IMG/VR virus record: IMGVR_UViG_3300046059_000013
Reading direction: 5' to 3' (one strand)
Source of the DNA: a virus
DNA length: 64,000 nucleotides
Shown here: in pieces, positions 6,263 through 36,417 of the stretch
Layout: the number at the start of each line of letters is the position of its first letter
Position numbering within the stretch: the stretch's first letter is position 1
Made by a program: the position numbers and the translations under genes
The notes under the pieces: generated by a model
Databases searched by the model: none
Seen by the model: only the letters and a program-made list of their open reading frames with translations
What the model was told of the DNA's origin: nothing

Positions 6263-6386
6263 GTTTATCGCTCGAGGGACTCCCGCTCTTTGGGTGGGCG
6301 GGAATTGAGCGTAGTTCGGGTCGCAGTCTACATAAGGGTGTTGTTTGCATATTGCCTGTTCCACCGAGAGGGCATCGGGACTTTAG

Positions 6387-6597: not shown

Positions 6598-6615
6598 CCG
6601 GAAGCGCTGTGGGTT

Positions 6616-10437: not shown

Positions 10438-10448
10438 TCACTTTTCTC

Positions 10449-10907
10449 CTAGGCTTCGACTTCTTCACCGACCTCTCGCGTAGCGCCGAGCCAGTCCTCG
10501 TACTGGTTGCGCTCGCCCTCAAGCTCGCGAATCTCTTCCCGAACCTCGTTAATCTGCTCGATAAGCTGCTCCGGTTCAACATTCAGGTCGCTGGCCACGT
10601 CGTTGCGAATCGTGCTGATTCGCTCCTGCAACATCTCGCGCTCCTGTTGGATGCGCTCGAGCTCCTCGCGGGCCTCCGCTTCCCCGATTTCGTCGTTCTC
10701 GCGCACTCGCTGGACAGCGTTCTCGGCACCGTCCAGCTCGTCAAGGTCGTCCTGGACACCCTCGTTGATGACGCGCTGCTCGGCTAGGGTTTGAAACTCG
10801 TTGAGTTGCTGGCCTAGTTCCTGGTTCTTGTCGCGCTTTTCCTGGATGTGCCCTGTCACGTCGCTGATGAGTTGCTGGAGAACGTCCTCGTCCATGACCT
10901 TGGTCAA
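10449..10907 (-). CDS. Acidic coiled-coil protein
   Basis: Continuous heptad pattern, E/Q-rich. Confidence 0.65.
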   Translation of the reverse strand: MTKVMDEDVLQQLISDVTGHIQEKRDKNQELGQQLNEFQTLAEQRVINEGVQDDLDELDGAENAVQRVRENDEIGEAEAREELERIQQEREMLQERISTIRNDVASDLNVEPEQLIEQINEVREEIRELEGERNQYEDWLGATREVGEEVEA

Positions 10908-10980
10908 GGCGTATCGCCTCGCGAGAGCGTAAGGGTTCTGAGGGTTTTAACAACCCGGAAAGGGCGGGGGCTTTCCACGG

Positions 10981-11715
10981 CTAGTCTCCCACGAACACGG
11001 TGTCGCTACCCTCGGTAATGTTCGTAGCTGTGCCGCCCACGTCGTCGCCTTCTCGCGCTGCGGCGGCGTAGTTGCTCGTGTTTTGACTGGTGGACCCGAT
11101 GAACACCTTGTCCGGGACCCGGGCAATGAACTCAAGCCCGTTCCCGGTTTCCTTGAACGCGTAGTACCCTTCGTCATTCGTGCCCGGGTTGGCAACCATG
11201 GCCACATCATCGCGCCCGATGTTGTCCCGATTCACATTATTGTCGTTGGGTTCAAGGTGGTTGGGCGTAGGGTCCGTGCCCGTTGGCGTAAACGGGTAAA
11301 ACCCGGCACCGTTGGCCTTGTGCTTCTCGTCCGTGACCGCTTTCTGGATGCCTTTGCTGGTGAGGGCGCCGCGCGAGTCCGAGCGAGGAAAAATGAGGAA
11401 CCCAACCGTGGGAGAACCCTGCTCCCCGTCCTGGGCTTCAGGGTTCCACTCAGTCATGGGACGATACAGTTGCACGTGCTGCCCGCCCCAACCCTGAATG
11501 GGCACGTCCACGACGAGAGGCTTCTGGTAGTTCCCGTCAGGGTCCTTGGCGTCGAGCTTGTGGCGCACGTCCACGGTTTGCTCTTCAAAATTGTAACTGT
11601 CAACAACCGCAAACTCGCAGGTCCACTGGTCATCCAGCATTTTGCGGATGCCTTTCTTGAGCGTGAGCTCTTCCTTGACACGATTGCGCTCGGAACCTTC
11701 CTCAGCTACACTCAT
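10981..11715 (-). CDS. Baseplate central spike with C-terminal PAAR-like motif
   Basis: OB-fold-like N-terminus (AVVDSYNFEEQTVDV..VDVPI); ends AAREGDDVGG...ITEGSDTVFVGD. Confidence 0.75.
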   Translation of the reverse strand: MSVAEEGSERNRVKEELTLKKGIRKMLDDQWTCEFAVVDSYNFEEQTVDVRHKLDAKDPDGNYQKPLVVDVPIQGWGGQHVQLYRPMTEWNPEAQDGEQGSPTVGFLIFPRSDSRGALTSKGIQKAVTDEKHKANGAGFYPFTPTGTDPTPNHLEPNDNNVNRDNIGRDDVAMVANPGTNDEGYYAFKETGNGLEFIARVPDKVFIGSTSQNTSNYAAAAREGDDVGGTATNITEGSDTVFVGD

Positions 11716-11717
11716 GA

Positions 11718-12821
11718 CTAGTTCACGTCGTCAAAGATTTCGTTGCGAAGATTCTGAATCGTAGCCGCAAACGCACCGGTCCACTGCGTGCGCCACCGCT
11801 CCCCCACCTCGTGCCGCACGCTCTCCACCACGGCAAGCCCAGACTGACCTTCCGGGTCCGTAATGGCGACGGTGGTCCCCGGCGAGATTCGCGGGTCCAA
11901 AGGACCGGCAAACCTGTACCCGATGCTAGTTTTCTCAGCCTGCTCGGACTGAATGGCAAGCTTGCGCTCGGGCTTCACGCTGCTGGGAACCGTAACCTCG
12001 ATGTCCGGGCTGCGCGCCTCGGGCTCCGCCGTGTAATTCGTCACCTGGTTCAGGGGAAGGTCCATGATGCGGCGCCCACCAAACACGGGCTCGCTCGTGT
12101 CCACCATGAAGAACCCCATCGGTTTCTCCGGGAGCGTGCCAAGACGGTGTGGACGCGCACCCTGAACCCGGTTGGACTTGCGGATGCGAGCGCTAACCTC
12201 GCGAGCGCTACCCTCTAACAGGGCTTTGGCTTGCCGCGTCTCAACGGTCGTGTTCCTCTCAAGACGAACCACGCCTGCTGGAACTTCCGGGTGCTCTCCC
12301 GTGGCGGCGGCGGTGGGTTCAAACGTGGCGCCCACACTCGCAGCCGCGTCACGAGCGAACTCGCCAACGGTAGGTGGCTCGGCTTCCTTTTGAAAGCTCA
12401 CCACGCTTCGGGAGATGTTTGCACGGAGTTGCTCGGTGCTGCTGCTGGCCCGAATACGCCAAGACGGGTTCCCATCCCTACGGAGGCGAAACGCGTGCTG
12501 GACTTGCCCTAGGTAGAGCGCGGTGGACGGGGGCACGTTGATGCCGGTGTCGTTGCCTTGGTACCCGGCTCGTACTCGGACCCATCCACCGCTTTGGATT
12601 TGGCGTCCAAGGTTGTCGGGCAGGTTCTCAATGGTGACGGTGAGCGTGTTGCCGACGCCTTCCTCGCTCGTGGCACCCTGCACCGTGGCCTCAACCTTGC
12701 GTCCTTTTGTTTGCTCGCCTATGTTGGCTTGGACGCGAATGACGGGTGCTCGTGTTGCTTGTTCCACAGCGTCCAAGATGTCCTGGTCTTCCACGTACTC
12801 TACAGGTCGTTCGATTTCCAC
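11718..12821 (-). CDS. Baseplate hub (gp27/gp44-like)
   Basis: TVTIENL, VRVRAGY, LYLGQV, PLDPRISPG, VESVRH motifs; canonical position. Confidence 0.8.
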   Translation of the reverse strand: MEIERPVEYVEDQDILDAVEQATRAPVIRVQANIGEQTKGRKVEATVQGATSEEGVGNTLTVTIENLPDNLGRQIQSGGWVRVRAGYQGNDTGINVPPSTALYLGQVQHAFRLRRDGNPSWRIRASSSTEQLRANISRSVVSFQKEAEPPTVGEFARDAAASVGATFEPTAAATGEHPEVPAGVVRLERNTTVETRQAKALLEGSAREVSARIRKSNRVQGARPHRLGTLPEKPMGFFMVDTSEPVFGGRRIMDLPLNQVTNYTAEPEARSPDIEVTVPSSVKPERKLAIQSEQAEKTSIGYRFAGPLDPRISPGTTVAITDPEGQSGLAVVESVRHEVGERWRTQWTGAFAATIQNLRNEIFDDVN

Positions 12822-14860: not shown

Positions 14861-17553
14861 TCATCCGGCTCCTGTTCCGAACACGGTTTGACTAACGGCG
14901 TCCCCGGTTTCGCGACCGATTTCAGAGCTACGGGAACCACGAGCGTCCACATTCACGTCCACGGTCGTGCCACCGCCATCACTACTCTCCTCGTTGTCGC
15001 TGGTGTCTTCACTAGCCTTGTCGGCTTCGCGTCCCACCTCGTCGAGACGGTCGCTAAGTTGAGCAAGACCCTCGTTGAACCCAGCCGTTTTTTCGTTCAC
15101 CATGTCGAACAGGCCGCCCACGACAGGCAGGTTCTCCGACAGGTCCTGAAGCGTGCGAAGAATGCCCTTGACAGCGTCAATGATGAGGCGGAACACGAGG
15201 TTCACGGCGCTACCCGCGGTTTCAAGACCGCGGAACAGGAAGATGAGGCCTTCGATAGCGAGCCCGGCGAGCCCGCTCTGGTCGCGCAGGTTGCCCAGGA
15301 GGTCGGCAATCTTGTCAAGCGCGGGTTCCAGGAACCCGACAAGGGCAAGAATGTTACTTGTTCCCACCCTAGCCAGGCTACCTCCAACCGCGGGCAAGCG
15401 GCGTACAAAGCCTTTCACGAACCGGTCCACGCCGCCGACAAGCTTGCCGATGACGGCTTGCAGGCGCATACTCGCAGGACCCGTAGGCCGGAACGCCCGC
15501 CCCACACCCGGAATCTTCTGCAACAACGTCGTGGACTGCGCCCCCCTACGAATAGCCGCCTCCTGGGACTTCATGCCCAACGCAGTAGCCCTGCCCGGAA
15601 CAGGACCCCGCATCGCTGACGGAGACGACGGAAGCACGCTACCAAGCCTACTCGCCGCGCCCGAAACAGCCTGACCGAACCGAGTCTGCGAAATTGCTCC
15701 CAAACCAAGAACACGACTGATTTCTCCGCGAATAGCGCCGAACATGCGCCCCATGCCGGTGCGAAACGTGCTCACCATGCGCGCACTAAGGCTCTCCGTG
15801 TTGGCGACAGCCGCCTGCTGGAACCTCCGCATCGCCCGCTGGTGCGCCTTCGCCGCCTTCTCGGTTTGCGCCATCTCGTCCGCGAGGTTCGACATTACAG
15901 GAGTAACATCCTCACCCTTCGCCGCCAACTGGCCGATGCTGGCTTCCAATTTCGCGGTCCTCGCCTGCGCTTTCTGTAGTGCGGCCTCCGACCGGATGAG
16001 TCCCTGCACAGTTTCCGGGCTTTGACGAATCGCTTGTTGCAGGGCTTGCGGAGCGCGGTTGCTCTGCATAAGCGCTTGAAACGTTTGCGCTTCGCTCATT
16101 TTCGCGGCCTGCCCACCGAACGCACCGCGAATCGTCTCAAGGCCCTGGGTCAAGATGGGGCGAGCCATCTTCTGGAAAATACCCACCGCACCCACGCCAG
16201 CCAAACCCAGCGCCGAAATCACGCCACCCCCCGCAAGGAGCGGCGCGATGAAGGGAATCTGGTTGATTTTCTCGGTCAGCACCGAGAGCGCGTCAATCAT
16301 GGGCTCGAACACGCCCGCAAGGAGAGCCCCGCCCTGTCGCGCGAACGTGGAAACCTCAAGGCCCAGTTTACGGAACGAGGCGGCGGTCGTTTCCAGCATG
16401 ACCTGGAGCTCCCCGTGCAGTTCCGTGGTCTCTCGGCCCTGCTTGACGCCGCGCTCGATTTCCTCGTTCGCCTCATCCCGGAACTTGGTGACCTTGTCCA
16501 GGCTCGCCGCCATCGTGGACAACGTTCGGAGCCCGCGCACGCGCTGGAGCCCGATTTCCTTCAGGATTTCCCCGCGCTCCGTCATCGTCATGTTGTTGTT
16601 CTCCACTTGGCGCGTCAACTCGCGGAACGCGCTCGCGGTGAGCGTGAACACGCGGAACGGGTCCTCTCGGAACAGTTGCGTGAGGCCCTCGTCCGTTTGA
16701 AGGAGCGCGCGCTCGGCCTCGGTTGCACCCGTCGCGAACGTCTCGAGGAAGCTTTGCACCTCTTCCTCGGCTTGCGGGATGCGCTTGAGGAACAGGCGAG
16801 TAATCGTAGACCGCGTAACGCGCCGCGCACGCTCGTCCAGGTCCGTCATGGCGCCCGCGATGGCGATGAGGTCAGAGCGCGCGAGGTCGGCTTGAACCCC
16901 GGTGGATTGGATGGCTTGAATGAACTCAATCATCCCGTCCACGCCGCCAGCGCTCTGGTCGCTCACGAGCTTCATGGCGCTCGCCAGCGAGAACGACTGG
17001 TCGAGGAGCTGGTCCATGGACTGGTCGGCGTCCCTGGTGGCTCGCGTAAGGCGGAACAGGGCCGTGATGGCGGTTCTGGCGTTCGTGTCCCCGAACTTGG
17101 CGAGCGTAAGACCGGCTTCAGCCAGCTTCTTGGTGGTGGATTCGCTCACGTCGCCGAACTGCTGAATCATGCGCACGGCACCGAGCGCCTCGTCGGGCAT
17201 CTCGTTGACGCTGCGGGCCACGTCGGTGGCGGTGTTGCGGAGCTGGTCCATGGTGCCCCGCATTCCTTCCATGCTGCTGGTGGCGGCAGCAGCGGCGACG
17301 GCGCTTTCTTTTTCGAAGTCGGCGAACGCTTTCGTCATCGCGGCGCCGGTGGCGATGGCGGTGAAGCCTAGGATGGCGATGCCAGCGCGGAGGTGTTCTG
17401 CGGATTGGGCGGCGCCGCCCATCGTGCTCTCCATGGCGTTGACGCGATTAGACGGGCATTTGCCCGAGCGAGTTTGGATGAGAATCCAGCGTCATCGAGA
17501 CGTAGCCCGATAGTCATCATTCTCAGGAACCCAACTCCTGGGACAAATGCCAC
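14861..17553 (-). CDS. Tape measure protein (apparent 1-nt frame break near 17449; track ORF 14861-17434)
   Basis: Long Ala/Gly helical protein with TP901-type core (FADFEKES...A). GAGGTG SD plus GTG at 17553 opens IGLRLDDAGFSSKLARANARL in another frame. Confidence 0.85.
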
Positions 17554-19990: not shown

Positions 19991-20046
19991 TTAGCGTTCA
20001 CCTCGAGGGGGTAGAACCGTTCTAGGGGTTTCCTGCATCATTTTTA

Positions 20047-21426
20047 TCAGAGGTCGATGTCGAGGTCGATGTTGGTTACATGCACCTGCGGGAGGATGCG
20101 AACGGTGACCTGGAAGAAGTCCAGGACACGGTCCACACGGTCTGCGTCGCTCACGTCACTCAGGCGAGGCTCGTTGACCTGAACGTCACCGGGCGACGTT
20201 CCCACAACGTTCTGGCGTTGCAGGTTCCCGATTTCCTGCTCGATAACCCCCTTGAGCGCCTGGATACCAGCATCCGAAATGGGAATGGCCTCCGGGCTCT
20301 CACGCCGAGCCGCCTTGATGCCTTCCTGAATCTGGCGTTCGACCGCGACCTTTCCTCGAGTGTTCGAGAAGAACGTGTCAAACGTGCCGAGGCCGGTGAC
20401 AGCGCGGTCGTTCGAGATGCGGAAGTTGTTCTGCAAGTCGCGGAACACAGCGTTGAACCCCTGGTTGTGGAACGTGTCAGCGTCCGAGGACTGGTCTGCC
20501 CCGAAATCGCTGTACGAGTACCCCTGGTCAATAGTCACGCCCTCGGGGGCCAGGGCCTCCTTCGTGGTGCCCATGATGCCGATGCTGGCACGGTACGCGC
20601 ACCACGCGCTCGAAAGGTCCCCCGAGTAGTGCGCGGCGAGCACGCATAGGTTGGGCTCTGGGTTGAGCGCGTCGGAAATGTCCTTCGTGGTGTCCCCACT
20701 CGGACTGTCAGCCGAGGGGTCCGCGCCGCTTTCGAGAACCGCTGTCACGAGGCGCTTGTGCCGGTTAACTGTGACCTCGTTGAGAATCTCTTTGTAGCGA
20801 CCGAACGTGGCCGCGTTCAGGGGCTCGTCCGGGATGGTCACCAGCTCGAACGGGTGCTCAAGCAGGTTGCCTAGTGGGCCCAGCGTGTCGAGCTTCTTCC
20901 ACGAAATCTCGACACCGGTGTGCGTGGTGTCCGCGTTGAAATCGCCTGTGTCCGTGTTGATGAGCACGGTGTCCGAGTCCGGGGTCTGCGTGCTCGGGTC
21001 GTCCACCGTGTATTGGACCGTGAGCGTGGTTTCGGTGGTGGCGCCTTGGCTGTCCTTTCCAACGGCGGTCGTGCTCGACGGGCTCGTTGGCGTTTCCTCC
21101 CAAATGGGCAGGTCCGAATCGGGCAGACTATCCTGCGTGGAGCTGAAGAACGAGGTGAAGGGAGAATCGCTATCCTCGTCAGCCGCTACAGCCCAGACTT
21201 GGCTGTTGTTTTGGAGCGCGGCCTCGACACCGTCCGCGGCGGCGCTTCCTTCCCCGTGGTCGCTTCGCGCCGTGCTTGAGACGATGTACCGGTTCGTCTC
21301 ACCAGCGCCGATGGTGGCGTTGCTGTCAAGGGGACTGACGATGGCCGGGACGCGCCGACCGATGGGGGCGCGGGAGGTGGCGCCGGTGCGGGTCGTGATG
21401 TTGGTAAGCTCGGTGCTTGTGGCCAT
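20047..21426 (-). CDS. Tail sheath protein
   Basis: C-terminal GFNAVF..R.SND, IP.SDAGI..L, DR.DR.L...V.V sheath signature. Confidence 0.85.
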   Translation of the reverse strand: MATSTELTNITTRTGATSRAPIGRRVPAIVSPLDSNATIGAGETNRYIVSSTARSDHGEGSAAADGVEAALQNNSQVWAVAADEDSDSPFTSFFSSTQDSLPDSDLPIWEETPTSPSSTTAVGKDSQGATTETTLTVQYTVDDPSTQTPDSDTVLINTDTGDFNADTTHTGVEISWKKLDTLGPLGNLLEHPFELVTIPDEPLNAATFGRYKEILNEVTVNRHKRLVTAVLESGADPSADSPSGDTTKDISDALNPEPNLCVLAAHYSGDLSSAWCAYRASIGIMGTTKEALAPEGVTIDQGYSYSDFGADQSSDADTFHNQGFNAVFRDLQNNFRISNDRAVTGLGTFDTFFSNTRGKVAVERQIQEGIKAARRESPEAIPISDAGIQALKGVIEQEIGNLQRQNVVGTSPGDVQVNEPRLSDVSDADRVDRVLDFFQVTVRILPQVHVTNIDLDIDL

Positions 21427-21535
21427 CTCGCTCTCGGTGACTCATTCTATCAGAGCGGAATAAAAAGGGAGCGAACCAGTCTGGCCCGGGCCTAGCTGTT
21501 TCGCCGCTTCTTCCGTGGGTTCAACCCCTAGTGGG

Positions 21536-21570
21536 GGAACCATACGGCTTTAGCCGTGGGAGGATGTCAG
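21536..21570 (+). mobile_element. Orphan IS605-type right end (hairpin + GGGAGGATGTCAG)
   Basis: 30/35 identical to the reverse complement of 43602-43636, with a compensatory stem change. Confidence 0.7.
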
Positions 21571-22499
21571 TCGTCGGTGAGGAGGATGTTGCCCTCATCG
21601 CTGAGGAGGATGTTGCCCTCATCGGTGACGAAGGTGTCGGCCCCAAACTGGAAGTCCACAGTCCCCTCGTCAGCACCTTCCCCAGCCCGCATAATGAACC
21701 GACCAGCAAGGCGCTTGTCTTCAGGAGGCTGTGCGTTCCGATTCCGGCGAAGCACGACCTGCATCATGCCCGTGACCGTGGACTCGCCTTCCTGCACTCC
21801 GATGTCGGTTAAATCGCGAATGTCCTCGAGGTGATATGCGCCATCTTGCAGGCTGTGGCCGCGGTAGAAAGCGGCAAGGTCAGAAAGGAAGTCCGTGGTC
21901 TCCTCAAGCACGTCGCTCTTTGAGTAGTCGATGCTCGCGTTCGCGTTGCTGGACGGGACCTCACTTCCGTGAATGATGAGGTTCATCATCCGGGTCTCCC
22001 ACGAGATGCGCGTCTCGCTAACGAGACGATGGTTGTAGTCAATCGTGAACTCCGTGTCCTCGTCCGGCGTGTCGCCGCCGTCGAGCCACTTGATTGCATG
22101 AGGAAGCGAACGCAGAGCGTTCGTGAAAATCTCGAAGTCATAGTCCTCGGTGAAGGTGTGATTAGAACCGTTCAAAGTGCCGGAGACGCTGTTAATGGAG
22201 GAGATGTCCTTTTCGTGCACGTCGTAAACGTCCTGCGTGGACGTGTACGTGGTGGTCGTGGTGTCTTGCTTGTTCTTGGAGACGTTTTTGCCGCGTTTGC
22301 TTTTCATCGAGCGCTTGATGTTGCCTGGTTCGATTTCGATGAGGGGAACGCTTTCGCTGGACAGGTCGTCGTGGTCCACGTTCACTTCGGTGCCGTCGAC
22401 GAGGGTAAGGGGGAGTTTGTCCCCGTTTTGCATTTGCACGGGGTCGGCTTTGTCGTGGAGGAACTCGCCGAGCGCTTTGATGGCGTTCGCCGTGACCAT
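21567..22499 (-). CDS. Tail terminator/completion-like protein with inserted Ig-like domain
   Basis: Immediately upstream of the sheath; central beta-rich insert (GSNHTFTEDYDF...PDEDTEFTIDY). Confidence 0.5.
   Translation of the reverse strand: MVTANAIKALGEFLHDKADPVQMQNGDKLPLTLVDGTEVNVDHDDLSSESVPLIEIEPGNIKRSMKSKRGKNVSKNKQDTTTTTYTSTQDVYDVHEKDISSINSVSGTLNGSNHTFTEDYDFEIFTNALRSLPHAIKWLDGGDTPDEDTEFTIDYNHRLVSETRISWETRMMNLIIHGSEVPSSNANASIDYSKSDVLEETTDFLSDLAAFYRGHSLQDGAYHLEDIRDLTDIGVQEGESTVTGMMQVVLRRNRNAQPPEDKRLAGRFIMRAGEGADEGTVDFQFGADTFVTDEGNILLSDEGNILLTDD
21578..21625. repeat. 24-nt tandem duplication (DEGNILL(S/T) x2)
   Basis: TGAGGAGGATGTTGCCCTCATCG(C/G) twice. Confidence 0.95.
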
Positions 22500-22591
22500 C
22501 TGGTTCGTGGTTCTTGCTTCGAGCGTTAAAACCCAGCGATAAGCGCCCGGAAGCCAAACCCTTAACCATGGACGGTTTCCTGGCCTGGCAG

Positions 22592-23710
22592 ATGCGCGTA
22601 GCGCTCTTCGGCCAAGTCTGGGGCCGCGTCTCCTACGCCCTCCTCAACAGAGCCTACGCCCTCGGCCTACACAATCAAGGCCACGACGTTCGCGTCATTC
22701 CCGCCGGAAGCATCGACGCAACACAGTACCACGACGACGAAATGCGCCACGTTGAAGAACTCTGCGTAAACAGCAAACCCGAAGCAGACGAAACCGTTCG
22801 CGAGTGGAGCGACGCCCGACTCCTCGTCCTCGTCCCCACCGCCGTGCGCTACCTGGACTCGCACGACTGGCCCGCCAACGACTGGGCCATTCACACCGTG
22901 TGGGAAACAGACCGCGTGCAACAAGGATGGGTCCCCCTCTTGAACCGGTTCAAGGCCACCATCACCGCAACCACGTGGAACCAGCACGTGTTCGAGCGAC
23001 AGGGAGTCACGAACGTAACCAACCGCGTGGCTCCAGAAGGCATCGACCCAAGCACTTACTACCCTGAGCACGAGAGCGACGACCAGCTCACGTTCGTCAC
23101 CGTCGCCGACTTCAACGCGCGCAAAGGCCTCCGCCAACTCCTCACCACGTTCGCGCACGTGTTCGGCGGCGGGAAAGACGCCAAGCTCCTCGTGAAAACC
23201 TGGTCGATGCGGGGCGAGGATATTGACGAAACCGCTGAGCGTATCAACCAGTTCGCAAGCGACTTCGGCGCCGACATTCGACCCATTACCACGCCCTTGC
23301 AACCCGAGGAGATGCGGCGCTTCTACTGTCGCGGCGATGCGTTCGTGTTGCCCACGCGCGGGGAGGGATGGTGTCGCCCGGCGATGGAGGCGCTCGCGTG
23401 CGGTACCCTCCCAATTGTGACGGGGTGGAGCGCGCACGAAGAATGGCTCAACGAGGACTACGCGCGGTTCCTAGACTACGAACTAACGGAGCCCCGGCGG
23501 CGTGTGGCGGGGTACAAGGCACCGCAGAAGTGGGCGGTCACGAGCTCGAAGGACCTGGCCGAGGCGATGGCCGACGTAGCTAACAACCGGGAGGGTGTTG
23601 CTGAGACTGCGCGCGAGGGGTCGGGTTGGGTTCGTGAGAATTGGAACAACGGGCACGCCGCGGAGAGGTTGGAAGACGCGCTGGTGCAAGTTTTTGAAAG
23701 TGGAACTTGA
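22592..23710 (+). CDS. Glycosyltransferase, GT4 (GT-B fold)
   Basis: APEGIDP, RKG..LL..F, FVLPTRGEGWCRPAMEALACG (Ex7E). AAACCCTTAA lies about 27 nt upstream of ATG 22592 (leaderless start inferred). Confidence 0.9.
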   Translation: MRVALFGQVWGRVSYALLNRAYALGLHNQGHDVRVIPAGSIDATQYHDDEMRHVEELCVNSKPEADETVREWSDARLLVLVPTAVRYLDSHDWPANDWAIHTVWETDRVQQGWVPLLNRFKATITATTWNQHVFERQGVTNVTNRVAPEGIDPSTYYPEHESDDQLTFVTVADFNARKGLRQLLTTFAHVFGGGKDAKLLVKTWSMRGEDIDETAERINQFASDFGADIRPITTPLQPEEMRRFYCRGDAFVLPTRGEGWCRPAMEALACGTLPIVTGWSAHEEWLNEDYARFLDYELTEPRRRVAGYKAPQKWAVTSSKDLAEAMADVANNREGVAETAREGSGWVRENWNNGHAAERLEDALVQVFESGT

Positions 23711-23735
23711 GAAGCAAAAGAGAGATGCTTGAAGC

Positions 23736-24122
23736 ATGACCAAAACTATCACGGTTCCCGAAAGCGAGGAAAAGATAGAGGCCCGCATCGACGAAATCGA
23801 ACAGGAGCTCGAAGACGAGCGATGCATCGGGGCCCCCGAGCATGTGAACTGCACATGGTGCGAGCTGATAAGCGAGAAGAATATACTCGAGAAGGTGCTC
23901 GACAATCGCGGCGGGTTCGAGGCCGTCATCGGCAAAGGGCAACGCTCTTGCACCGCCCAATTCAAGTTGCAAGACGAAGCACCGATTAATCTTCGCAGCG
24001 GGGACACGGCCAGGCTCATCATCCCCACAACGGACGGTGACATTAGCATCGCCGTCGAGGCAAAGAAAACGCACGTCAACGTCGATGCCACCAGTCTTCC
24101 CAGGGAGAATCTGGAAACGTGA
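23736..24122 (+). CDS. Hypothetical protein (CTWC motif)
   Basis: Co-oriented ORF between the GT and the sulfotransferases. Confidence 0.65.
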   Translation: MTKTITVPESEEKIEARIDEIEQELEDERCIGAPEHVNCTWCELISEKNILEKVLDNRGGFEAVIGKGQRSCTAQFKLQDEAPINLRSGDTARLIIPTTDGDISIAVEAKKTHVNVDATSLPRENLET

Positions 24123-24790
24123 CACGCTTTTTCGCTGTCGGCACGGGCCGGTGCGGCACCAAGTACCTCGCCAACCTTCTCCAAACCAACAACGTGAACG
24201 ATGCGTATTGGGAAAAGGAACCCTTCCTGGAGGAGCGTCTCCTCGCCTACTGGAAAGGCGAGCTCAACCAAGGCCGCACACGAGACCTCATCAAGGACCT
24301 AAAGCGCACACGCAACGACGTGTTCTTCGAAGCCAACCACGCGCTCACCTTCGGGATGCCCCTCCTCCTCGACGTGTTCCTCGACGCGCGCTTCGTCCAC
24401 TTGCACCGGGCCCCGGACCCGTGCATCACCTCGCACCTGCGAAACTCACCAAGCGTCAACCTCGAAAGCCGATGGACCGCGGACGAAAAATTCACCGCCG
24501 CCTGCAAATGGTGGTCGATGAAGAACGGGTTCATCCTGGGATTGCGGGAGCGAATCGAGGACGAACTTGTCCTCGACCTCCCGTTCGAGGACCTTGTCTC
24601 GGGCGAGGTGGACGCGCTCCAGGACTTCCTCGGCATGGAGTTCGAGCACGACGAAACCGCGGCGATGAACAAGACCAGCCAATACCGCGCCGACAATTTT
24701 CCACCGCCAACCGAGTGGAGCGACGAGAAGTGGGACACGCTCGAAGAGACGTGCGGGGAAGTTGCGGAGGCCCTCGGGTACGATGTGTAA
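24119..24790 (+). CDS. PAPS-dependent sulfotransferase 1
   Basis: 5'-PSB GTGRCGT; 3'-PB FVHLHR.P..CITS; L.FEDL. Confidence 0.85.
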   Translation: MTRFFAVGTGRCGTKYLANLLQTNNVNDAYWEKEPFLEERLLAYWKGELNQGRTRDLIKDLKRTRNDVFFEANHALTFGMPLLLDVFLDARFVHLHRAPDPCITSHLRNSPSVNLESRWTADEKFTAACKWWSMKNGFILGLRERIEDELVLDLPFEDLVSGEVDALQDFLGMEFEHDETAAMNKTSQYRADNFPPPTEWSDEKWDTLEETCGEVAEALGYDV

Positions 24791-25376
24791 GCCAACGGTC
24801 AAGGTATGGGGCCTTCAACGAAGCGGCACGAACTGGTTTCGCCTCCTATTGGACAAGAACCTCGAGTGCCGCACGGTCGTCCACGACGACGTGTGGAAAC
24901 ACGCCCCACCCGCGAGCCTGGACCCAGGCAAGAAGCACGTTTACATCACGAAGCACCCGCTCTCGTGGCTCGTCTCGTACAAGAACTATCGAGCCCAAGA
25001 GAGCGGCGTGGAACCGGATGCGTTCACAAGCCTCCAACTGTACGCCAGTTGGCACCAAGCCTGGAACAATAAAAACGCGCTTCATGTTCGGTACGAGGAC
25101 GCACTCCACAACCCCAAAAAGGAGGGAGTTGGCGCGGTGAAGCACGCTTATGACTTTGACGAGTCCCCCCTCTACTTTCGGAACTTGGAAGGGCGCGTGA
25201 TGCCTGCGGACAACGACGCGCAAGTCCGCCTCGGCGGCTCCTTTGACGCCTCCTACTACTTGGACGAGGAATGGCTTGACGAGTACGAGAACGAGACAGC
25301 AAGCGCGCTGTGGTCCTGGATGAAAGAACGCAACCTGACCCGCGTGGCGGGGAGCCTCGGGTACGCTGACCGCTAG
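24783..25376 (+). CDS. PAPS-dependent sulfotransferase 2
   Basis: GLQRSGTNW; WKH; ITKHPLSWLVSY; VRYEDAL.NP. Confidence 0.85.
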   Translation: MCKPTVKVWGLQRSGTNWFRLLLDKNLECRTVVHDDVWKHAPPASLDPGKKHVYITKHPLSWLVSYKNYRAQESGVEPDAFTSLQLYASWHQAWNNKNALHVRYEDALHNPKKEGVGAVKHAYDFDESPLYFRNLEGRVMPADNDAQVRLGGSFDASYYLDEEWLDEYENETASALWSWMKERNLTRVAGSLGYADR

Positions 25377-25549
25377 ACAGGGTCGAAGTTGTCGCTGAAG
25401 TTCGCCTTTCGAGCGGCGCGCTCGTTCACGTCCTGAACCTCGCCCACCTCGTTAAACGTGTACGAGTCCGCGTCACTAGGCCCGGCTGGGTTGACCTCGA
25501 GCGTGACGGGTGTCGCGGACTCGGGCCCCGTATACTTGACTTCAGGCAC
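25373..25549 (-). CDS. Small acidic protein (58 aa, MPEVKYTGP...)
   Basis: GTG start after GAGG; last ORF of the appendage module. Confidence 0.55.
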   Translation of the reverse strand: MPEVKYTGPESATPVTLEVNPAGPSDADSYTFNEVGEVQDVNERAARKANFSDNFDPV

Positions 25550-25560
25550 CCTCTACACCT

Positions 25561-26502
25561 CTAGCTGTTCTTGTTCTGGGCGCGTAGAACCATCTCGAAC
25601 TGGTCCCCGTTAACCAGGTACAAGGGGTCTTCGAACACGTGACGGGCAAGCATCTTGCCGCTCGTCTCCGTGTCACCATCCGCCAGGTAATCGCTATCAC
25701 CATCGGGTGGCGGGCTCGTCGAGTTGAACACGCCCGTTTCGTTCACCGTGGCCGTATGGGTTGCCGTCCACGTGTGCCGGAACTCGCTCGTGTCGTTCGT
25801 TGCCGAGTTCGGGCTGGAATACTGGTTAATCGTGGCAGCAGCGCGGGAGAGTCCGTACCCGTCGCTGTTAGGGTCCGCGTCCGTGAACTCGTACCCGAGC
25901 GCGTCGTTGTTTGTTGCGATGGGCACGTTGTTCGTGCCGTTCCCGTACCCAAGCGCGATGGCGTTGAACCTCGATGGGTTCTTCGAGTAGTACAGGTCGT
26001 ACACGGTCAGGTAGTTCGTCTCGCGAACTCCCGGGTACACGACCGCCTCGTACGGTCGGTCGCCGCTAACGTCGGCTTCGCTGTCCACGTTCACTTGAAC
26101 GTCAACGGTGAGCGTGAAATGGTCGTCCGGGCTGAGAGAGAGAACCTTGTTGAACGCGGTGTGGAGCAGCATGGGCCCGCTGTTCGCGTTCGTGTCGTCG
26201 TCGGCGAACACGCCGAACTCGCTAACGTCCCGGTCCGCGGTTACAATCCACTTGTTCTCCCACCGCATCGTGTCCGCGGTGTAATCCGTGGTTTGGAGGT
26301 TCTGCACGTTGGCCTGCTCGCGGCTGAGGCCGCCGTCCGTGTGCTCGTTCTCGAGCTGGCTGTCCGTTTCCGTGATCGAGGGCGGGGCGCCTTCATCCGC
26401 GCTGCCGGTGCCCCAGCCTAGGGCGAGAACCCCGAACGGGCCGCCGCTGTCACCGTGCGTGAGGAGGGCGACGCGTTCGATTCCGTCTTCGGTAACCGTC
26501 AC
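25561..26502 (-). CDS. Virion fibre-attachment-like protein with a tandemly duplicated domain
   Basis: Two copies of ALG.G.G...GLSR..A...(S/N)E.G(V/F)F...G.ML....F....L...D.F. Confidence 0.65.
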   Translation of the reverse strand: MTVTEDGIERVALLTHGDSGGPFGVLALGWGTGSADEGAPPSITETDSQLENEHTDGGLSREQANVQNLQTTDYTADTMRWENKWIVTADRDVSEFGVFADDDTNANSGPMLLHTAFNKVLSLSPDDHFTLTVDVQVNVDSEADVSGDRPYEAVVYPGVRETNYLTVYDLYYSKNPSRFNAIALGYGNGTNNVPIATNNDALGYEFTDADPNSDGYGLSRAAATINQYSSPNSATNDTSEFRHTWTATHTATVNETGVFNSTSPPPDGDSDYLADGDTETSGKMLARHVFEDPLYLVNGDQFEMVLRAQNKNS

Positions 26503-26804
26503 GGTAGCACCCCCGGCGGGTTCTGGTCGAGGTAGTCATAGAGGTGGTCCGGGCCGGCGTCTTCTTCGATGATGACGTTGCCGTCTTCATCGAACTTGGG
26601 GCGAGCGTTATTGTCCTCGGTCACGATTTTGCCTTGCTTGAGCACGTTCCCGTCCTCATCGTAGAGGCGTTCGACCTCGGCATCGTTGCGGGGGTCGGTG
26701 ACGCTGACGACGTACGTGGCGCCGTGGTAGTGGTTGTTATTGGAGCCGCACGTGATGGTGCGCGTGTGGTACTCGTTGTAGGAGCGGGGTCCTTCAGGAG
26801 TCAT
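26499..26804 (-). CDS. Hypothetical protein
   Basis: Overlapping start/stop with neighbours; (Y/F)DEDGNV repeated. Confidence 0.6.
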   Translation of the reverse strand: MTPEGPRSYNEYHTRTITCGSNNNHYHGATYVVSVTDPRNDAEVERLYDEDGNVLKQGKIVTEDNNARPKFDEDGNVIIEEDAGPDHLYDYLDQNPPGVLP

Positions 26805-26954
26805 AGTTTACTCGTGTCTCGGTGACACCGTCTTCTTGGTCTCGCTTGCGGAAGACCTCGAGCTTCTTGTTTCCGTCTTCGTCTTCGACGGTGACTTCGG
26901 CCATTGGGTCTTCTTACGCAGAATGGGGTTTTAAAATGTTGGAAGTTGCTCGTG

Positions 26955-28784
26955 CTAGTCGTAGAGGTCCACTCCCCTGGTCTTGCCTTCGGCCCGGTGT
27001 ATAAGCTGGAGGATGAGAGGAGCGTAGTCGGTGTCCATCCACTGGTCAGAGAAGCACTCGAGCAGCTCTACGGTCCGGTCGTACCGTTGCCGGCCGATGA
27101 CGAGTTCGGTTGCATCGAAGAGTTCGTCATCAGACTTGAGGAGCTTGGCGGGGTCCTCGACGCGGCTGAGGCGTCGGTCCCAGTCCACCTCGTCTATGTT
27201 GGTGCTGGTGGTTTCTTGCCGTGTGAGGCTTCGGGTCTCGTCCGTGGCAAGGCTTTGGTGTGTGGTGTTGAAGCGCGTGGCGCTGCGCGTGTAGTCCTCG
27301 CTGACCAGCAGGGATGCGGTGTCGAACCTAGAGAGGACGCGGTCCGTGCTTTCCACGTCAACGACGCGAGAAGCTTTTTCAGAGCGTGTCAGGCTGCGGT
27401 CTTCGTCAGCGTCGTACGCGGACGTGGTGGTTTCTGGACGTTGGAGAAGGCGGTCCGCTTCGCTGGTGACTCCGCGCACTTGTTCCTCGAAACGTGACAG
27501 GTGCCGGTCCTCGTCCTGGTTGAACGAGCGGATGATGTCTTCCGGCTTGAAGAGTTGGCGATGGTAGTCTCCGAGGTAGGCTTTGGCTAGTTGAACTTTT
27601 CTTGTCAGGTTGCGAGCGTCTTGGTCGCTGATGGTTTTGGATGTGCGCTCGTGCCGGGTGAGGAGGCGGGTGAACGTGTCGGTGAGGGCTTGCGCTTGCC
27701 GTTCGGGGCGCGTGATGTTGCGCTTCCTGTCTCCTGTGTGTTGTCTGGTCGTGGGCGTGGGTCGGGTGAGTGCTCTTTCGAGGCTGGGGAAGTGGTTGCA
27801 CTTTGTTTCTTTGGGCCTGCTGAGGGAGCGGTGCCATTCGTTGGTGTGTGCCGTTGAGGCGCTCTCACGCCGTGTGAGGGCGCGGGATTCCCGGAGAGGG
27901 GTCACGTTGCGGGAAGTGGTGTCGCGGCGTGTGAGGGTCCTGTCTTGGCTTGTGGCCATCATCCTAGCCACAGCCTCGACTCGGGTTGCGGCGAGCGTGT
28001 CATCATCCACAAGCACGCTGCTACTCTTGTTGAACCGCGTTATGCTCCTCTCCTCGTCGTCCTGGAAGCCTAGAGACGTTGTTTCAAGACGAGTTAGGCG
28101 TCTACTATAATCACCCTCCAAGCCCCGGATCGAGTCGTCGTATCGGGTTAAGGTTCGGTGCGTGTCGACGCCTGCGTAGTCTCGTAGAAGAGCATCAAAG
28201 CGCGTTGCGTTGCGTGCGTCGTTGTCTGAATAGCCACGTTTCGCGTTCTCAAGCCGCGTCACGCTGCGGGCTTCCCCCGACTCGGTGAGAAGGCGTGTCG
28301 TGGTTTCAAAGCGGGAGAAAGCTCGAGCGTTATCGTCGCGAAAGTCGCGGGCTGCGTCTTGGAACCTGGTTAGGTTGCGCAGTTCGCCCACTTCAGCGAG
28401 GTCGCGCCTGGTGTTCTGGAAGCGTGTTAGGCTTCTAGCTTCACCGGGTTCAAGGTGGTCGCGTTGCGTGATTTCTAGCCGCGTAACGTTACGCTGCCGG
28501 CCCTGTTCTTGCTGGTTGCGCTTGGATTCGTTGAACCGGGTAATGAGGCTTGACCCGGTCACGGTGAAGTCTCGAAGGAAGCGATGAAACCGCATGAGGT
28601 GGCGAACATCTTCACCGGAGAACGTTCTCCTCGTCTTGGGGAACCGGGCAAGGGAGCGGTCTTCGTTCAGGCTTGCGTCCTCGATGCGGGCTGTCTTGAA
28701 GTTGCCTCGGCCTACTTGGCTCGTGCCGAACGTGATGTTGGTGATGCTGGGCTGGCCTTGGTTACTCAAGCCTGCATCACCCAC
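26955..28784 (-). CDS. ~18-aa repeat protein (R-x-L/I-T-R-x-E/D), putative fibre/solenoid
   Basis: Roughly 25-30 imperfect repeats across most of the ORF. Confidence 0.7.
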   Translation of the reverse strand: MGDAGLSNQGQPSITNITFGTSQVGRGNFKTARIEDASLNEDRSLARFPKTRRTFSGEDVRHLMRFHRFLRDFTVTGSSLITRFNESKRNQQEQGRQRNVTRLEITQRDHLEPGEARSLTRFQNTRRDLAEVGELRNLTRFQDAARDFRDDNARAFSRFETTTRLLTESGEARSVTRLENAKRGYSDNDARNATRFDALLRDYAGVDTHRTLTRYDDSIRGLEGDYSRRLTRLETTSLGFQDDEERSITRFNKSSSVLVDDDTLAATRVEAVARMMATSQDRTLTRRDTTSRNVTPLRESRALTRRESASTAHTNEWHRSLSRPKETKCNHFPSLERALTRPTPTTRQHTGDRKRNITRPERQAQALTDTFTRLLTRHERTSKTISDQDARNLTRKVQLAKAYLGDYHRQLFKPEDIIRSFNQDEDRHLSRFEEQVRGVTSEADRLLQRPETTTSAYDADEDRSLTRSEKASRVVDVESTDRVLSRFDTASLLVSEDYTRSATRFNTTHQSLATDETRSLTRQETTSTNIDEVDWDRRLSRVEDPAKLLKSDDELFDATELVIGRQRYDRTVELLECFSDQWMDTDYAPLILQLIHRAEGKTRGVDLYD

Positions 28785-32927: not shown

Positions 32928-33746
32928 TTATCGGCGAGGGATCGTGTTGAACGCCATCACGTTTTGCAGGAGCTCGCTGGCGATGTCCGGCGCGATTTCA
33001 TCGTCAGCAAACTCCGCCGTCACATCGAACCAGCCGAATCCGGGAATGGGCACGTCGCCTTGCTGCCAGCCGTTCTCAAGGATTTGCGCGAGCTTGGCGA
33101 CGCTCATGTCCGCGTCTGGGTGTCGCTTGTTCTCGAACCCGATGAGGGCTTGAGCACCGTTCCCGGTTTGCGTAACGTCGGAGTCGAGCGCGTTGAGAAG
33201 CGTGCGCGTGTCCCGCAGCGCCGTGTTGTCCTGGTTGAGAGAGCGCTGACGGACCGTGTCCTGGGAAATGGGCCACGGGTGCCTGCCAGAGTAGTCGGTT
33301 CGTGCGACGAGGCTGCGGCGACCCTGCGGCACTTCCCCGCGCCCATTCACGTTGGCTTGCATACGCCACACCATTTCAGCCGCCTTCTTCATGCGCTCGG
33401 CAGCATCCCCCGCCGCCTCTTTCGTGATGGCGGGCATGGCGGCGAGCAAGCTGGGAATGTTGTTGCGGTCCCTGATAACCATCGTGCCGCGCTGTCGGGA
33501 CGCGGCGAAGCGGCCCACTTGAAGACCGCCGGTTGTTTGCACGTTGAACACGCCCGCCATCGTGCCCGGGCTCGAGCCCCCGCTAACGCTGCTCTCGAAA
33601 GAGGAGAACGTGGTGCGGAGGGGAACACCGTTGCGCTTCATGGCGGCGCTCATGCGCCCGACGCCAGAGCGGGAGAGTTCCTGAATGTTCCCGATGCCGC
33701 CTGCTTCTTTGGCGACGGCGTTCATCGCTTGCTCCGGGCTGACCAC
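32928..33746 (-). CDS. Neck/tail-completion protein
   Basis: LRDT.TLLNAL, LA.ILE.G, IP pattern; position after head closure. Confidence 0.55.
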   Translation of the reverse strand: MVSPEQAMNAVAKEAGGIGNIQELSRSGVGRMSAAMKRNGVPLRTTFSSFESSVSGGSSPGTMAGVFNVQTTGGLQVGRFAASRQRGTMVIRDRNNIPSLLAAMPAITKEAAGDAAERMKKAAEMVWRMQANVNGRGEVPQGRRSLVARTDYSGRHPWPISQDTVRQRSLNQDNTALRDTRTLLNALDSDVTQTGNGAQALIGFENKRHPDADMSVAKLAQILENGWQQGDVPIPGFGWFDVTAEFADDEIAPDIASELLQNVMAFNTIPRR

Positions 33747-35520: not shown

Positions 35521-36417
35521 CTACAGGCCGTCAATCTTGAGCGTGTGACTCTTATCGCTACGATAATCCACGAAGCTGGCAAGGTGGAACGTCTTCATGC
35601 GAACCGGCTCCCCCGGCTCGTCACGACCCTTCACCAGCTCAACCCCGTTCGGCGTAGCGTGAACGAACGCAGCGTTGTCGGCCCGCTGGAAGTGCAGAAC
35701 AGCCAGGTCGTCCAGGTTCGCGTTCTGCACAGGAACCATCTCGTCGATGACCTGGTTCAGCATCTCCATCGCGCTAGGCCCGCCACTGCTGGACTCGTCG
35801 TACGGGCGAATGAGCTCCATCGCCTCGGCGCTGTCGATGCCAAGGGTCCGACTGCCGCTCACCTCGTCGTCCTCAGCGGTCTTCGCGGCCTTGATGACGG
35901 CCTTGACGAACTCCTTGGGCCCGTCGCTGGCCGTCATGTTGCTGCCCATGGTGAACGTCTCGCTAGCGGTCGGGATATTGATGAGGCCGTCCCAGTTGTC
36001 GACACCGTCACCGTTCCACGCGCTGTCGTCGAGCTTGCGACGGATGGCGTCCACGATGCGGACGGCCTCCTGGTCGCTGACCTCCTGCACGGGGCTGGGC
36101 TGGTCGGGCTGACCGCCGCGGCCCTGCTCGCGAATCCAGCGCTCTGCCCACGGGATGTCAAGGCCCGCGGTGAAGAACCACATGTCCACGTTGTCCCGCT
36201 CGCGGGTGATGTTGCCGCGACGCCCAAGCTCCCCGTTCCGGGTGACCGTGACAGGAATCTCTTCCTGAATGGTGTTGTAGTCGAACCGGTACGTGGGGTC
36301 GATGGTCTCACGGTTGAGAACCCGCTCGAACGACGGCTCCTCCTGGAGCACGTCGATTTCCTGCTCGCGCAGGCGAATCTTGAACTCGGGGTCAACGGTT
36401 CCTCGACTCGTAGGCAC
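35521..36417 (-). CDS. Major capsid protein, HK97 fold (encapsulin/DUF2184-like)
   Basis: 298 aa after protease/decoration; DAIRRKLD.SAWNGDG..NWDGLIN.P. Confidence 0.8.
   Translation of the reverse strand: MPTSRGTVDPEFKIRLREQEIDVLQEEPSFERVLNRETIDPTYRFDYNTIQEEIPVTVTRNGELGRRGNITRERDNVDMWFFTAGLDIPWAERWIREQGRGGQPDQPSPVQEVSDQEAVRIVDAIRRKLDDSAWNGDGVDNWDGLINIPTASETFTMGSNMTASDGPKEFVKAVIKAAKTAEDDEVSGSRTLGIDSAEAMELIRPYDESSSGGPSAMEMLNQVIDEMVPVQNANLDDLAVLHFQRADNAAFVHATPNGVELVKGRDEPGEPVRMKTFHLASFVDYRSDKSHTLKIDGL

Follow-up and report, generated by a model that had tools for sequence, protein, structure and literature searches.

Glycosylation by virus-encoded enzymes is already established in giant viruses and, more recently, in mycobacteriophages. 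Chloroviruses and other giant viruses decorate their virions independently of the host by means of their own cytoplasmic glycosyltransferases, as exemplified by the capsid glycans of the PBCV-1 type, and proteins with a sulfotransferase fold are also present in giant-virus proteomes. In mycobacteriophages, the capsids of the tailed phages Che8 and Rita are reported to be glycosylated by phage-encoded glycosyltransferases (PMC11256854); these enzymes are soluble and cytoplasmic, the system includes no sulfotransferase, and the hosts are bacterial. In the archaeon Halobacterium salinarum, N-glycans are sulfated by VNG1056C and VNG1057C, two sulfatase-like sulfotransferases of which one is membrane-linked; each acts on its own sugar, and the glycan also bears a methyl group (PMC11980604). 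The AglB-dependent pathway of haloarchaeal N-glycosylation is summarised in PMC10384203. Our literature search on archaeal tailed viruses and phage virions did not find any experimental demonstration of sulfation by a prokaryotic virus.

Here, we analysed a 64-kb window (the whole stretch of viral DNA under study, 64,000 nucleotides) that forms part of the 91-kb genome of a myovirus-like virus of halophile type. Four co-directional ORFs on the + strand fill positions 22592-25376, tightly packed and with coding-type GC3 values of 0.71 to 0.82. They encode a GT4 glycosyltransferase (22592-23710, 372 aa), an ORFan with a CxxC motif (23736-24122, 128 aa), a PAPS-type sulfotransferase of the Sulfotransfer_3 family named ST-A (24119-24790, 223 aa), and a minimal PAPS-type sulfotransferase named ST-B (24783-25376, 197 aa). 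ST-A starts with a GTG codon and overlaps the stop of the preceding ORFan by 4 nt, while ST-B and ST-A overlap by 8 nt. The cassette lies between neck/appendage genes and tail-sheath genes, all on the - strand. Baseplate (8270-12821), tape measure (14861-17434) and tail sheath (20047-21426) genes are found on one side, and capsid (35521-36417) and protease (36904-39270) genes on the other, likewise on the - strand. A preliminary sequence-only reading had described a four-gene + strand cassette antisense to virion genes; our analysis confirmed this arrangement, its operon-like packing and the identity of its genes, the three enzyme calls being backed by family, motif and fold. Because the cassette is on the strand opposite to the late genes, it constitutes a separate transcription unit.

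Upstream of the cassette, a divergent intergenic region (22500-22591) separates GT4 from a - strand tail-side gene that starts at the ATG at 22499 (21567-22499, 310 aa). This gene, located next to the sheath gene, contains a Thr run and matches phrog_877, a family of unknown function, at 4e-5. Two AT-rich, TATA-like boxes are found in the intergenic region: TTAAAA (22527-22532), 28-33 nt upstream of the - strand ATG, and TTAA (22562-22565), 27-30 nt upstream of the ATG of GT4 at 22592. Both are putative archaeal promoters for leaderless transcripts. An alternative start for GT4 exists at 22568 (ATG), and the N-termini of orthologues align with residue 1 of the protein initiated at 22592. At its 3' boundary, the cassette meets a small convergent ORF of 58 aa on the - strand (25373-25549) without any spacer or terminator, the stops of ST-B and of this ORF sharing the CTAG at 25373-25376. 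Although this ORF lacks a family match, its composition (GC1-3 of 0.64/0.42/0.80) suggests that it is a putative gene.

The first protein of the cassette matched the Pfam families PF00534 (Glycos_transf_1; 39.2 bits for a cutoff of 26.4, 6.9e-10) and PF13692 (35.3 bits for a cutoff of 27), as well as phrog_2170 at 1e-26, the same PHROG to which many actinophage glycosyltransferases belong. Its AF2 model (pLDDT 90.8, pTM 0.91) returned at least 500 PDB matches at E<=1e-3, the best 50 of which are GT-B glycosyltransferases, almost all of the GT4 type. The best match was 3oy2_A (TMq 0.77), a glycosyltransferase of chlorovirus NY-2A that is annotated as putative, comes from a eukaryotic virus and shares only 13% sequence identity with GT4. 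The EX7E motif corresponds to E258 and E266 in the C-terminal domain, and both Glu residues are invariant in 45 aligned relatives. With a maximal Kyte-Doolittle value of 0.91 over a 19-residue window, the protein is soluble. By its model, GT4 is thus a GT-B-fold, predicted retaining-type glycosyltransferase. The mycobacteriophage glycosyltransferases share only 25-29% identity with GT4. In Arthrobacter phage DanielleIgnace, the gene for a relative of GT4 has capsid genes on one side and tail genes on the other.

ST-A matched the Sulfotransfer_3 family (PF13469) with 45.3 bits for a cutoff of 27 (1.6e-11), and its Atlas model (pTM 0.82) aligned with sulfotransferase clusters with TM scores of 0.81-0.86 over 216-222 of its 223 residues. 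Residues G10, R11, C12, G13, K15, R97 and S105 are invariant in three orthologues. By SULT numbering, we take G10-R-C-G-T-K15 to be the 5'-phosphosulfate loop and R97...S105 to be the 3'-phosphate motif. E32 is also invariant, whereas H74 varies among orthologues; E32 could act as the catalytic base, like the Glu of carbohydrate sulfotransferases. The nearest solved relatives by sequence are the sulfotransferase domains of OLS and CurM (4gox and 4gbm), which also match ST-B. In wider searches, the ST-A alignment against IMG/VR gave a weak partial match only, a search of JGI metagenomes yielded a single 24-residue fragment, and a word-based search returned only the proteins of the window itself.

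ST-B scored under the Pfam cutoffs (22.0 versus 27 for PF13469, and 17.2 versus 22 for PF00685). However, a family profile built from 45 members matched solved PDB sulfotransferases with an E-value of 2.4e-6, which places ST-B in the sulfotransferase superfamily, outside current Pfam models. In agreement with this, the best 50 Foldseek PDB matches of its AF2 model (pLDDT 93.7) were all sulfotransferases, Stf0 being among the fold matches. The model superimposed on SULT1C3 with bound PAP (2h8k_A) with a Z score of 14.3 and an rmsd of 3.2 over 175 of 197 residues, and tyrosylprotein sulfotransferases were among the near-tied matches (Z 12.5-12.7). Its motifs comprise a loop (R13-S-G-T-N17), K39-H40, K57...S65 and R103-Y-E105-D. 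In the 45 sequences, H40 is invariant, and R13, N17, K39, K57, S65 and E105 are at least 90% conserved; furthermore, HMMER paired both the loop and the K57...S65 segment with their SULT1A3 counterparts. The predicted cofactor loops and catalytic His of ST-B are therefore in place. Altogether, 207 relatives of about 200 aa were retrieved at E<=1e-3, the best with 33% identity, on contigs of widely varying GC (0.45-0.68), and the nearest Atlas clusters are 95-100% viral. Both sulfotransferases share their fold and PAPS-binding motifs with CurM/OLS (4gbm/4gox), Stf0 (1tex) and NodH, but their similarity to solved bacterial enzymes reaches E-values of 1e-3 to 1e-6 only, and ST-B is 80-100 residues or so shorter than CurM/OLS, Stf0 and NodH, lacking the inserts that cover their substrates.

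The remaining gene of the cassette, the ORFan (GC3 of 0.71), encodes an acidic N-terminal helix followed by C30/H36/C39-x2-C42 and a beta-rich part; the Cys/His residues could form a small site for metal binding. This protein matched neither a Pfam nor a PHROG family, no homologue was found among 5.8 billion clusters (a word-based search matched the ORFan itself only), and its Atlas model was poor (pLDDT 0.55). In the related loci described below, a methyltransferase gene occupies the place in front of ST-A; the ORFan is unrelated to that enzyme, and its descent from it as a diverged copy was rejected. The ORFan would rather be an accessory specific to this lineage.

A search for orthologues revealed that GT4, ST-A and ST-B are all encoded by two other virus contigs with acidic proteomes, L011 and L012. 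Identity to these orthologues is 36-41% over the full length for GT4, 36-38% for ST-A (38% and E 5e-50 for the better one) and 27-29% for ST-B. No other gene of the window has a significant tblastn match in these contigs, apart from two weak segments of polB, a distant family-B DNA polymerase, in L011. L011 carries a siphovirus-type tail module that shares none of its proteins with the window, and no shared structural protein was found in the 38 kb of this contig that were read, its capsid region lying outside those 38 kb; hence, no co-inherited virion substrate was found. Conservation of the trio as a set across otherwise unrelated halophilic viruses is new, and indicates that the three enzymes work together, in support of the functional link that the sequence-only reading had proposed. 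In L011 and L012, the trio is dispersed and non-contiguous among polB, RNase T, RtcB and Hjc genes, near a dUTPase and a dNMP kinase-like gene, with GT4 at 2-2.5 kb from the sulfotransferases and other genes in between. A methyltransferase gene lies directly upstream of ST-A in both contigs, and another is found near a GT4/ST-B-like pair in L002; such a neighbour is usual company for glycan tailoring. Looser pairings of GT4 with an ST-B-like gene occur in L001 and L002. GT4 is located less than 5 kb from an ST-B relative in four of the five contigs long enough to judge. In L010, an ST-B relative occurs without any nearby glycosyltransferase. Neither ST-A nor ST-B was found in the next-nearest GT4 loci (0 of 55 bacterial and 0 of 2 in IMG/VR).

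The origin of the cassette was searched more broadly. The nearest cellular relatives of GT4 are bacterial (25-34% identity), and no close relative was found in any haloarchaeal genome of the species collection, so that capture of GT4 from a haloarchaeal host was rejected. Megablast of positions 20000-28000 against 50,697 phage records gave no match, nor did tblastn against the phage collection with either sulfotransferase, a typical relative of ST-B, the sheath or the capsid protein as query, or scans of IMG/VR with ST-A, ST-B and the sheath. The IS200/IS605 transposase genes of the window gave no indication of the host, the relatives found being all distant and bacterial. The logic of the N-glycan of Hbt. 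salinarum, in which two sulfotransferases each modify their own sugar and a methyl group is added, is that of GT4, ST-A and ST-B, plus the methyltransferase in the related viruses. In contrast to the host enzymes, which are sulfatase-like (PMC11980604), ST-A and ST-B have the P-loop PAPS-sulfotransferase fold. Given the lack of homology to VNG1056C and VNG1057C, the cassette is not a captured host pathway. The mimicry suggested earlier was thus not borne out as far as host enzymes are concerned, since those enzymes are sulfatase-like (PMC11980604) and the haloarchaeal genomes of the species collection contain no close relative of GT4.

These observations are best explained by a sugar-then-sulfate module that is complete in itself and has spread horizontally among tailed viruses of halophilic archaea. 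Its chemistry is probably that of a sulfated glycoconjugate. Action in the cytoplasm of the infected cell is favored by the lack of a hydrophobic segment in all four proteins. There, GT4 would use an NDP-sugar as donor to glycosylate an acceptor, and ST-A and ST-B would each add a sulfate from host-made PAPS at different positions of the resulting glycoconjugate, with the methyltransferase supplying a third decoration in L011 and L012. Reliance on host PAPS follows from the absence of any PAPS-synthesis gene in the 64-kb window, where the only candidate for an own supply, a generic P-loop kinase-like gene (50454-50951), was rejected as it fell below all thresholds. The acceptor may be particle proteins of the virus, to which the sugar would be attached before assembly or in its course, in the manner of mycobacteriophages and chloroviruses, and the negatively charged, sulfated coat would aid solubility and shielding in saturated brine. 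We give this whole reading, a sulfated glycoconjugate made in the cytoplasm and carried by the virion, a probability of roughly 0.35.

Within this reading, the assignment of virion proteins as the acceptor is tentative. It is favored by the location of the cassette inside the virion gene block of the window, by the parallels with the DanielleIgnace locus, the chlorovirus match of GT4 and the capsids of Che8 and Rita, and by the fact that tailed virions assemble in the cytoplasm, beyond the external AglB step of the host. Conversely, the trio of L011 and L012 lies among replication and repair genes, as would be expected of early or middle genes. The argument made earlier from the position beside appendage genes is thus weakened, and linkage with structural modules, whose absence elsewhere had been named as a refutation, was not seen in either orthologous instance. 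This absence weighs little, as the proven virion glycosyltransferases of mycobacteriophages are also distant from structural genes (PMC11256854). Since the place of the cassette inside the virion module is not conserved, it cannot identify the target, be it the virion or the host envelope. Predicted folds of the glycosyltransferase and sulfotransferases do not reveal acceptor specificity either, as the enzymes among their best matches act on acceptors ranging from small molecules and lipids to glycans and proteins. If the virion is the target, candidate acceptors are the nearby appendage proteins, such as the Arg/Thr protein with 18-19-residue repeats, which contains about 25 invariant Thr/Ser sites. 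The more specific proposal that a doubly sulfated, O-linked glycan made by the virus wholly in the cytoplasm coats the particle of a tailed archaeal virus is doubtful.

Alternatively, the cassette could target glycans or glycolipids of the host envelope. The enzymes would then act from the cytoplasmic side of the membrane, with N-glycan precursors linked to dolichol phosphate or archaeal glycolipids as their substrates, and the extra-sulfated S-layer glycan or lipid would lead to superinfection exclusion or reduce the loss of progeny on cell debris. [quoted passage not shown] The company of replication-type genes in L011 and L012, the sharing of the trio by viruses with different tails, and the independent transcription of the cassette in the window are also consistent with such a role. 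However, all four cassette proteins lack a hydrophobic segment, whether as a membrane anchor or an amphipathic one, and the fold of the sulfotransferases is unrelated to that of the host N-glycan enzymes. Furthermore, HRTV-DL1, the sole case tested, was unaffected by the loss of host N-glycosylation (PMC10384203), and the 64-kb window shows neither an integrase nor a lysogeny module, such that long-term conversion is not evident. On balance, we consider remodelling of the host surface unlikely, though only slightly more so than decoration of the virion. It is also conceivable that the product of GT4 is not what the sulfotransferases modify. Their substrate would then be protein tyrosines, a small metabolite or a molecule of host signalling or defence, and their linkage with GT4 would reflect a shared island of auxiliary genes and not one pathway. 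The size of the ST-B family, the viral nature of its nearest clusters and the GC range of its contigs would fit this view, as would the near tie with tyrosylprotein sulfotransferases, the relatives devoid of a neighboring glycosyltransferase, and the distance between GT4 and the sulfotransferases in L011 and L012. Yet the trio is all that the window shares with these contigs apart from the distant polB, a pattern difficult to account for if the genes had no function in common; the trio is compacted into a single overlapping unit in the window, and GT4 is close by in most of the informative contexts of ST-B relatives. We therefore regard this possibility as improbable.

The sequence-only reading had considered DNA modification less likely, and our results agree. 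Under such a scheme, GT4 would glycosylate a modified viral base and the sulfotransferases would decorate the sugar, shielding the genome from host nucleases. A GT-B fold is likewise present in the enzymes that glucosylate DNA in T-even phages, and in L011 and L012 the trio adjoins polB, dUTPase, dNMP kinase-like, RNase T and Hjc genes. However, neither a hydroxymethylase-type (thymidylate-synthase-like) gene nor any other gene for base modification was found in the 64 kb of the 91-kb genome or in the L011 and L012 loci, and we know of no sulfated DNA modification. In addition, a methyltransferase together with two distinct sulfotransferases is typical of glycan tailoring. Hypermodification of DNA is consequently very unlikely.

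Irrespective of its acceptor, the trio represents a minimal, well-defined set of three enzymes, including a 197-aa sulfotransferase of an apparently mostly viral family. If virion proteins are the target, it would provide a route by which particles assembled in the cytoplasm gain the acidic, sulfated surface that is typical of life in brine. A sulfated virion glycan would be the first on any prokaryotic virus and would correspond, on the viral side, to the sulfated glycans of the haloarchaeal S-layer. If the host envelope is the target, the cassette would be the first receptor-remodelling system of any archaeal virus.

Finally, the genes next to the cassette had been described as rich in Ser, Thr and Asn. 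They are enriched in these residues (23-26% S+T+N) but moderately so, most other genes of the window reaching 15-20%, and a similar level is found in the fibre genes of an unrelated virus.

The window, of ~0.60 G+C and with an acidic proteome, belongs to a contig of 91,022 bases. Its virion block occupies the - strand and includes genes for an S49-type prohead protease (36904-39270), the major capsid protein (35521-36417), a neck protein (32928-33746), the tail sheath (20047-21426), the tape measure (14861-17434), baseplate wedge and hub (8270-12821) and large fibre-like proteins (3464-8133). A family-B DNA polymerase fragment with a HINT/intein domain lies on the + strand (301-2706), and three IS200/IS605 TnpB genes are also found in the window. 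The gene content of the virion block together with the acidic proteome identifies a myovirus-like virus infecting a halophile. tblastn searches with the sheath and major capsid proteins returned no match among 50,697 phage and archaeal-virus records, and the sheath was also without match in IMG/VR. As judged by these sequence comparisons, the lineage seems to stand alone within the collections searched.

The neck/appendage genes are separated from the sheath gene by a cassette of four genes (22592-25376), which encode a GT4 glycosyltransferase, an ORFan and the sulfotransferases ST-A and ST-B and lie on the + strand, opposite to the virion block. As the - strand block is broken up by this cassette, a separate promoter may serve the tail-side genes. 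The packing is operon-like: genes 1 and 2 are separated by 25 nt, genes 2 and 3 overlap by 4 nt, and genes 3 and 4 by 8 nt. Downstream, ST-B ends in a CTAG that also contains the stop codon of a convergent 58-codon ORF on the - strand (25373-25549, coding-like GC3 of 0.80), so that the two overlap with neither spacer nor terminator between them. The 5' end faces a divergent spacer of 92 nt containing AT-rich boxes, putative promoter elements that lie where promoters of leaderless archaeal transcripts would be expected, in either direction. TTAAAA at 22527-22532 precedes the ATG of the - strand gene 21567-22499 by 28-33 nt.

The sequence-only reading had described the cassette as a glycosyltransferase, a CxxC protein and two divergent PAPS-dependent sulfotransferases, and family, motif and fold evidence bore this out. 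The GT4 protein exceeds the Pfam threshold and matches phrog_2170 (1e-26), and both glutamates of its EX7E motif (E258 and E266) are invariant among 45 relatives. The top 50 PDB matches of its AF2 predicted model (pLDDT 90.8) are GT-B glycosyltransferases, almost all of GT4 type, the best being 3oy2 from chlorovirus NY-2A. An upstream ATG at 22568 was dropped in favour of the start at 22592, because orthologues begin at the corresponding residue. ST-A is a Sulfotransfer_3 protein scoring above the Pfam threshold; its Atlas predicted model superposes on sulfotransferase clusters with TM of 0.81-0.86, and its cofactor loop (G10...K15) and R97...S105 motif are invariant among orthologues.

ST-B scores under Pfam thresholds but nevertheless belongs to the same superfamily as ST-A. 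The profile of its family, which comprises 207 detectable members of ~200 aa, finds solved sulfotransferases with an E value of 2.4e-6; only sulfotransferases are present among the top 50 PDB matches of the AF2 model (pLDDT 93.7), which aligns with PAP-bound SULT1C3 at Z 14.3. Among 45 aligned family members H40 never varies, and R13, N17, K39, K57, S65 and E105 almost never do. Viral sequences make up 95-100% of the nearest Atlas clusters. Alignment of 45 relatives favours a reading from the ATG at 24783; the public gene call (protein P0005) begins at residue 23 and therefore lacks the cofactor-binding loop. Hydrophobic segments were found in none of the four cassette proteins.

Gene 2 encodes an ORFan of 128 aa for which cluster, Pfam and PHROG searches found neither homologue nor family. 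Its CxxC is formed by C39 and C42, with C30 and H36 close by. In two related contigs, L011 (11342-11748, 14333-14521) and L012 (9329-9634, 13430-13558), short Cys-rich ORFs showing the pattern CGC...C-x-[ED]-H are interspersed with the trio genes (GT4, ST-A, ST-B), and one of these ORFs lies between ST-A and ST-B. The stretch C...EH..CxxC of the ORFan loosely resembles this pattern, with no significant similarity between the proteins.

The nearest ST-B relatives led to contigs in which a GT4 gene is close by, among them L001 and L002. Another contig reached in this way, L007/L012, carries orthologues of all three enzymes (GT4, 36% full-length identity, E 3e-73; ST-A, 38%, E 5e-50; ST-B, 27%), and the GT4 search reached one further, virus-sized contig of 87 kb, L011, that also has the full trio (41%, 36% and 29%, respectively). 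L011 and L012 are mutually syntenic and of halophile type, as their proteomes are acidic (D+E 18-20%, K+R 9-10%). Except for two weak polB segments in L011, no other window protein matched L011/L012. The GT4 genes that come next in similarity are bacterial (25-34% identity), with ST-A or ST-B at 0 of 55 loci, and further database scans added no trio member. Since the trio is the sole cargo common to otherwise unrelated viruses, its enzymes very probably work in one pathway. Furthermore, a short SAM-methyltransferase-like gene directly precedes ST-A in both L011 and L012, and L002 has one too. Sugar, methyl and sulfate together are the usual signature of glycan tailoring.

In L011/L012 the trio is not contiguous and is surrounded by genes for polB, RNase T, a metallophosphoesterase, RtcB, Hjc and a nucleotidyltransferase. 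L011 also carries tail genes, which start ~8.5 kb from ST-B: one encodes a tape measure protein of 1,901 residues or more, and fibre genes with lectin domains come next, in the other orientation. Its tail is therefore siphovirus-like and, over the region walked, shares no protein with the window. Placement within the virion block is therefore peculiar to the window virus, whose cassette resembles an insertion that was inverted and compacted and has a promoter region of its own. The sequence-only reading had named a cassette unlinked to structural modules elsewhere as evidence against it, and the trio of L011/L012 is formally such a case. We do not think that the lack of linkage decides the target, because in the experimentally supported case of mycobacteriophages the glycosyltransferases also sit far from structural genes (PMC11256854), and because, conversely, a relative of the window GT4 lies between capsid and tail genes in an Arthrobacter phage. 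The Ser/Thr/Asn richness noted by the same reading in neighbouring genes is modest (23-26%) and equally seen in the L011 fibre proteins, so this feature carries little weight.

We consider it likely, with a probability of about 0.75, that the cassette makes a sulfated glycoconjugate. The acceptor is not readable from the folds, because the structural matches of GT4 act on small molecules, lipids and glycans, and the near-tied matches of ST-B include small-molecule and tyrosylprotein sulfotransferases. Given such a product, virion proteins are our tentative first choice: precedents, the assembly of tailed virions in the cytoplasm, soluble enzymes and the local context would count for them, and extra negative charge in brine is a plausible benefit to the virion. 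Glycans or lipids of the host envelope are rated only slightly less likely as the target. Assembly and sulfation of dolichol-linked glycans take place on the cytoplasmic side (PMC11980604, PMC10384203), S-layer glycoproteins are reported receptors of head-tailed haloviruses (PMC10384203), and the trio does not depend on virion architecture and sits in a replication-type context in relatives; however, the one head-tailed halovirus tested was unaffected by loss of host N-glycosylation (PMC10384203). The gene neighbourhood in those relatives is all that speaks for DNA, a most improbable target, and no hydroxymethylase was seen in the 64 kb; the rest of the probability falls to other acceptors.

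That Halobacterium glycoproteins carry sulfated glycans, as had been stated at the outset, agrees with PMC11980604, in which the N-glycan sulfotransferases VNG1056C and VNG1057C are sulfatase-like proteins. The host pathway resembles the viral one in having two enzymes for two positions plus methylation, but VNG1056C and VNG1057C are not related to ST-A and ST-B, whose fold is that of P-loop sulfotransferases. Since these parts are non-homologous and no close GT4 relative was found in haloarchaeal genomes of the species collection, the suggested mimicry is unsupported as far as captured host genes are concerned. The 64-kb window yielded no gene for PAPS synthesis, so the donor must be supplied by the host or through the remaining 27 kb. 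A 165-aa P-loop kinase-like protein is encoded at 50454-50951 (+), with AAA_33 and AAA_18 below thresholds and no APS-kinase match in the Pfam scan.

The enzyme families of the trio and virus-encoded glycosylation had been described before, and some phages and giant viruses have annotated sulfotransferase genes; a literature search for sulfotransferases in archaeal tailed viruses found no paper. What is new is a set of three enzymes conserved among viruses of halophilic archaea, a minimal sulfotransferase, ST-B, whose family is missed by current Pfam models and appears mostly viral, and the demonstration that the trio passes from one virus lineage to another without regard to structural genes.

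The 4-kb contig L001 (1-4144, GC 0.68, acidic proteins) carries four genes in a row, in the order ST-B-like, Sulfotransfer_1/3 (288 aa), GT4 and again ST-B-like, which places three sulfotransferases around one glycosyltransferase. In the window, the - strand gene at 26955-28784 encodes a 609-aa protein without Pfam or PHROG family, which consists of ~25 repeat units, 18-19 residues in length, whose core is R-x-[LAVI]-[TS]-R-[FLPR]-[EDQN]. Compared to the rest of the proteome, this protein is unusually basic (K+R 17%); it contains 10 N-x-S/T sequons and could be a fibre, a sulfated-glycan binder or, with one invariant Thr/Ser per repeat, an acceptor.
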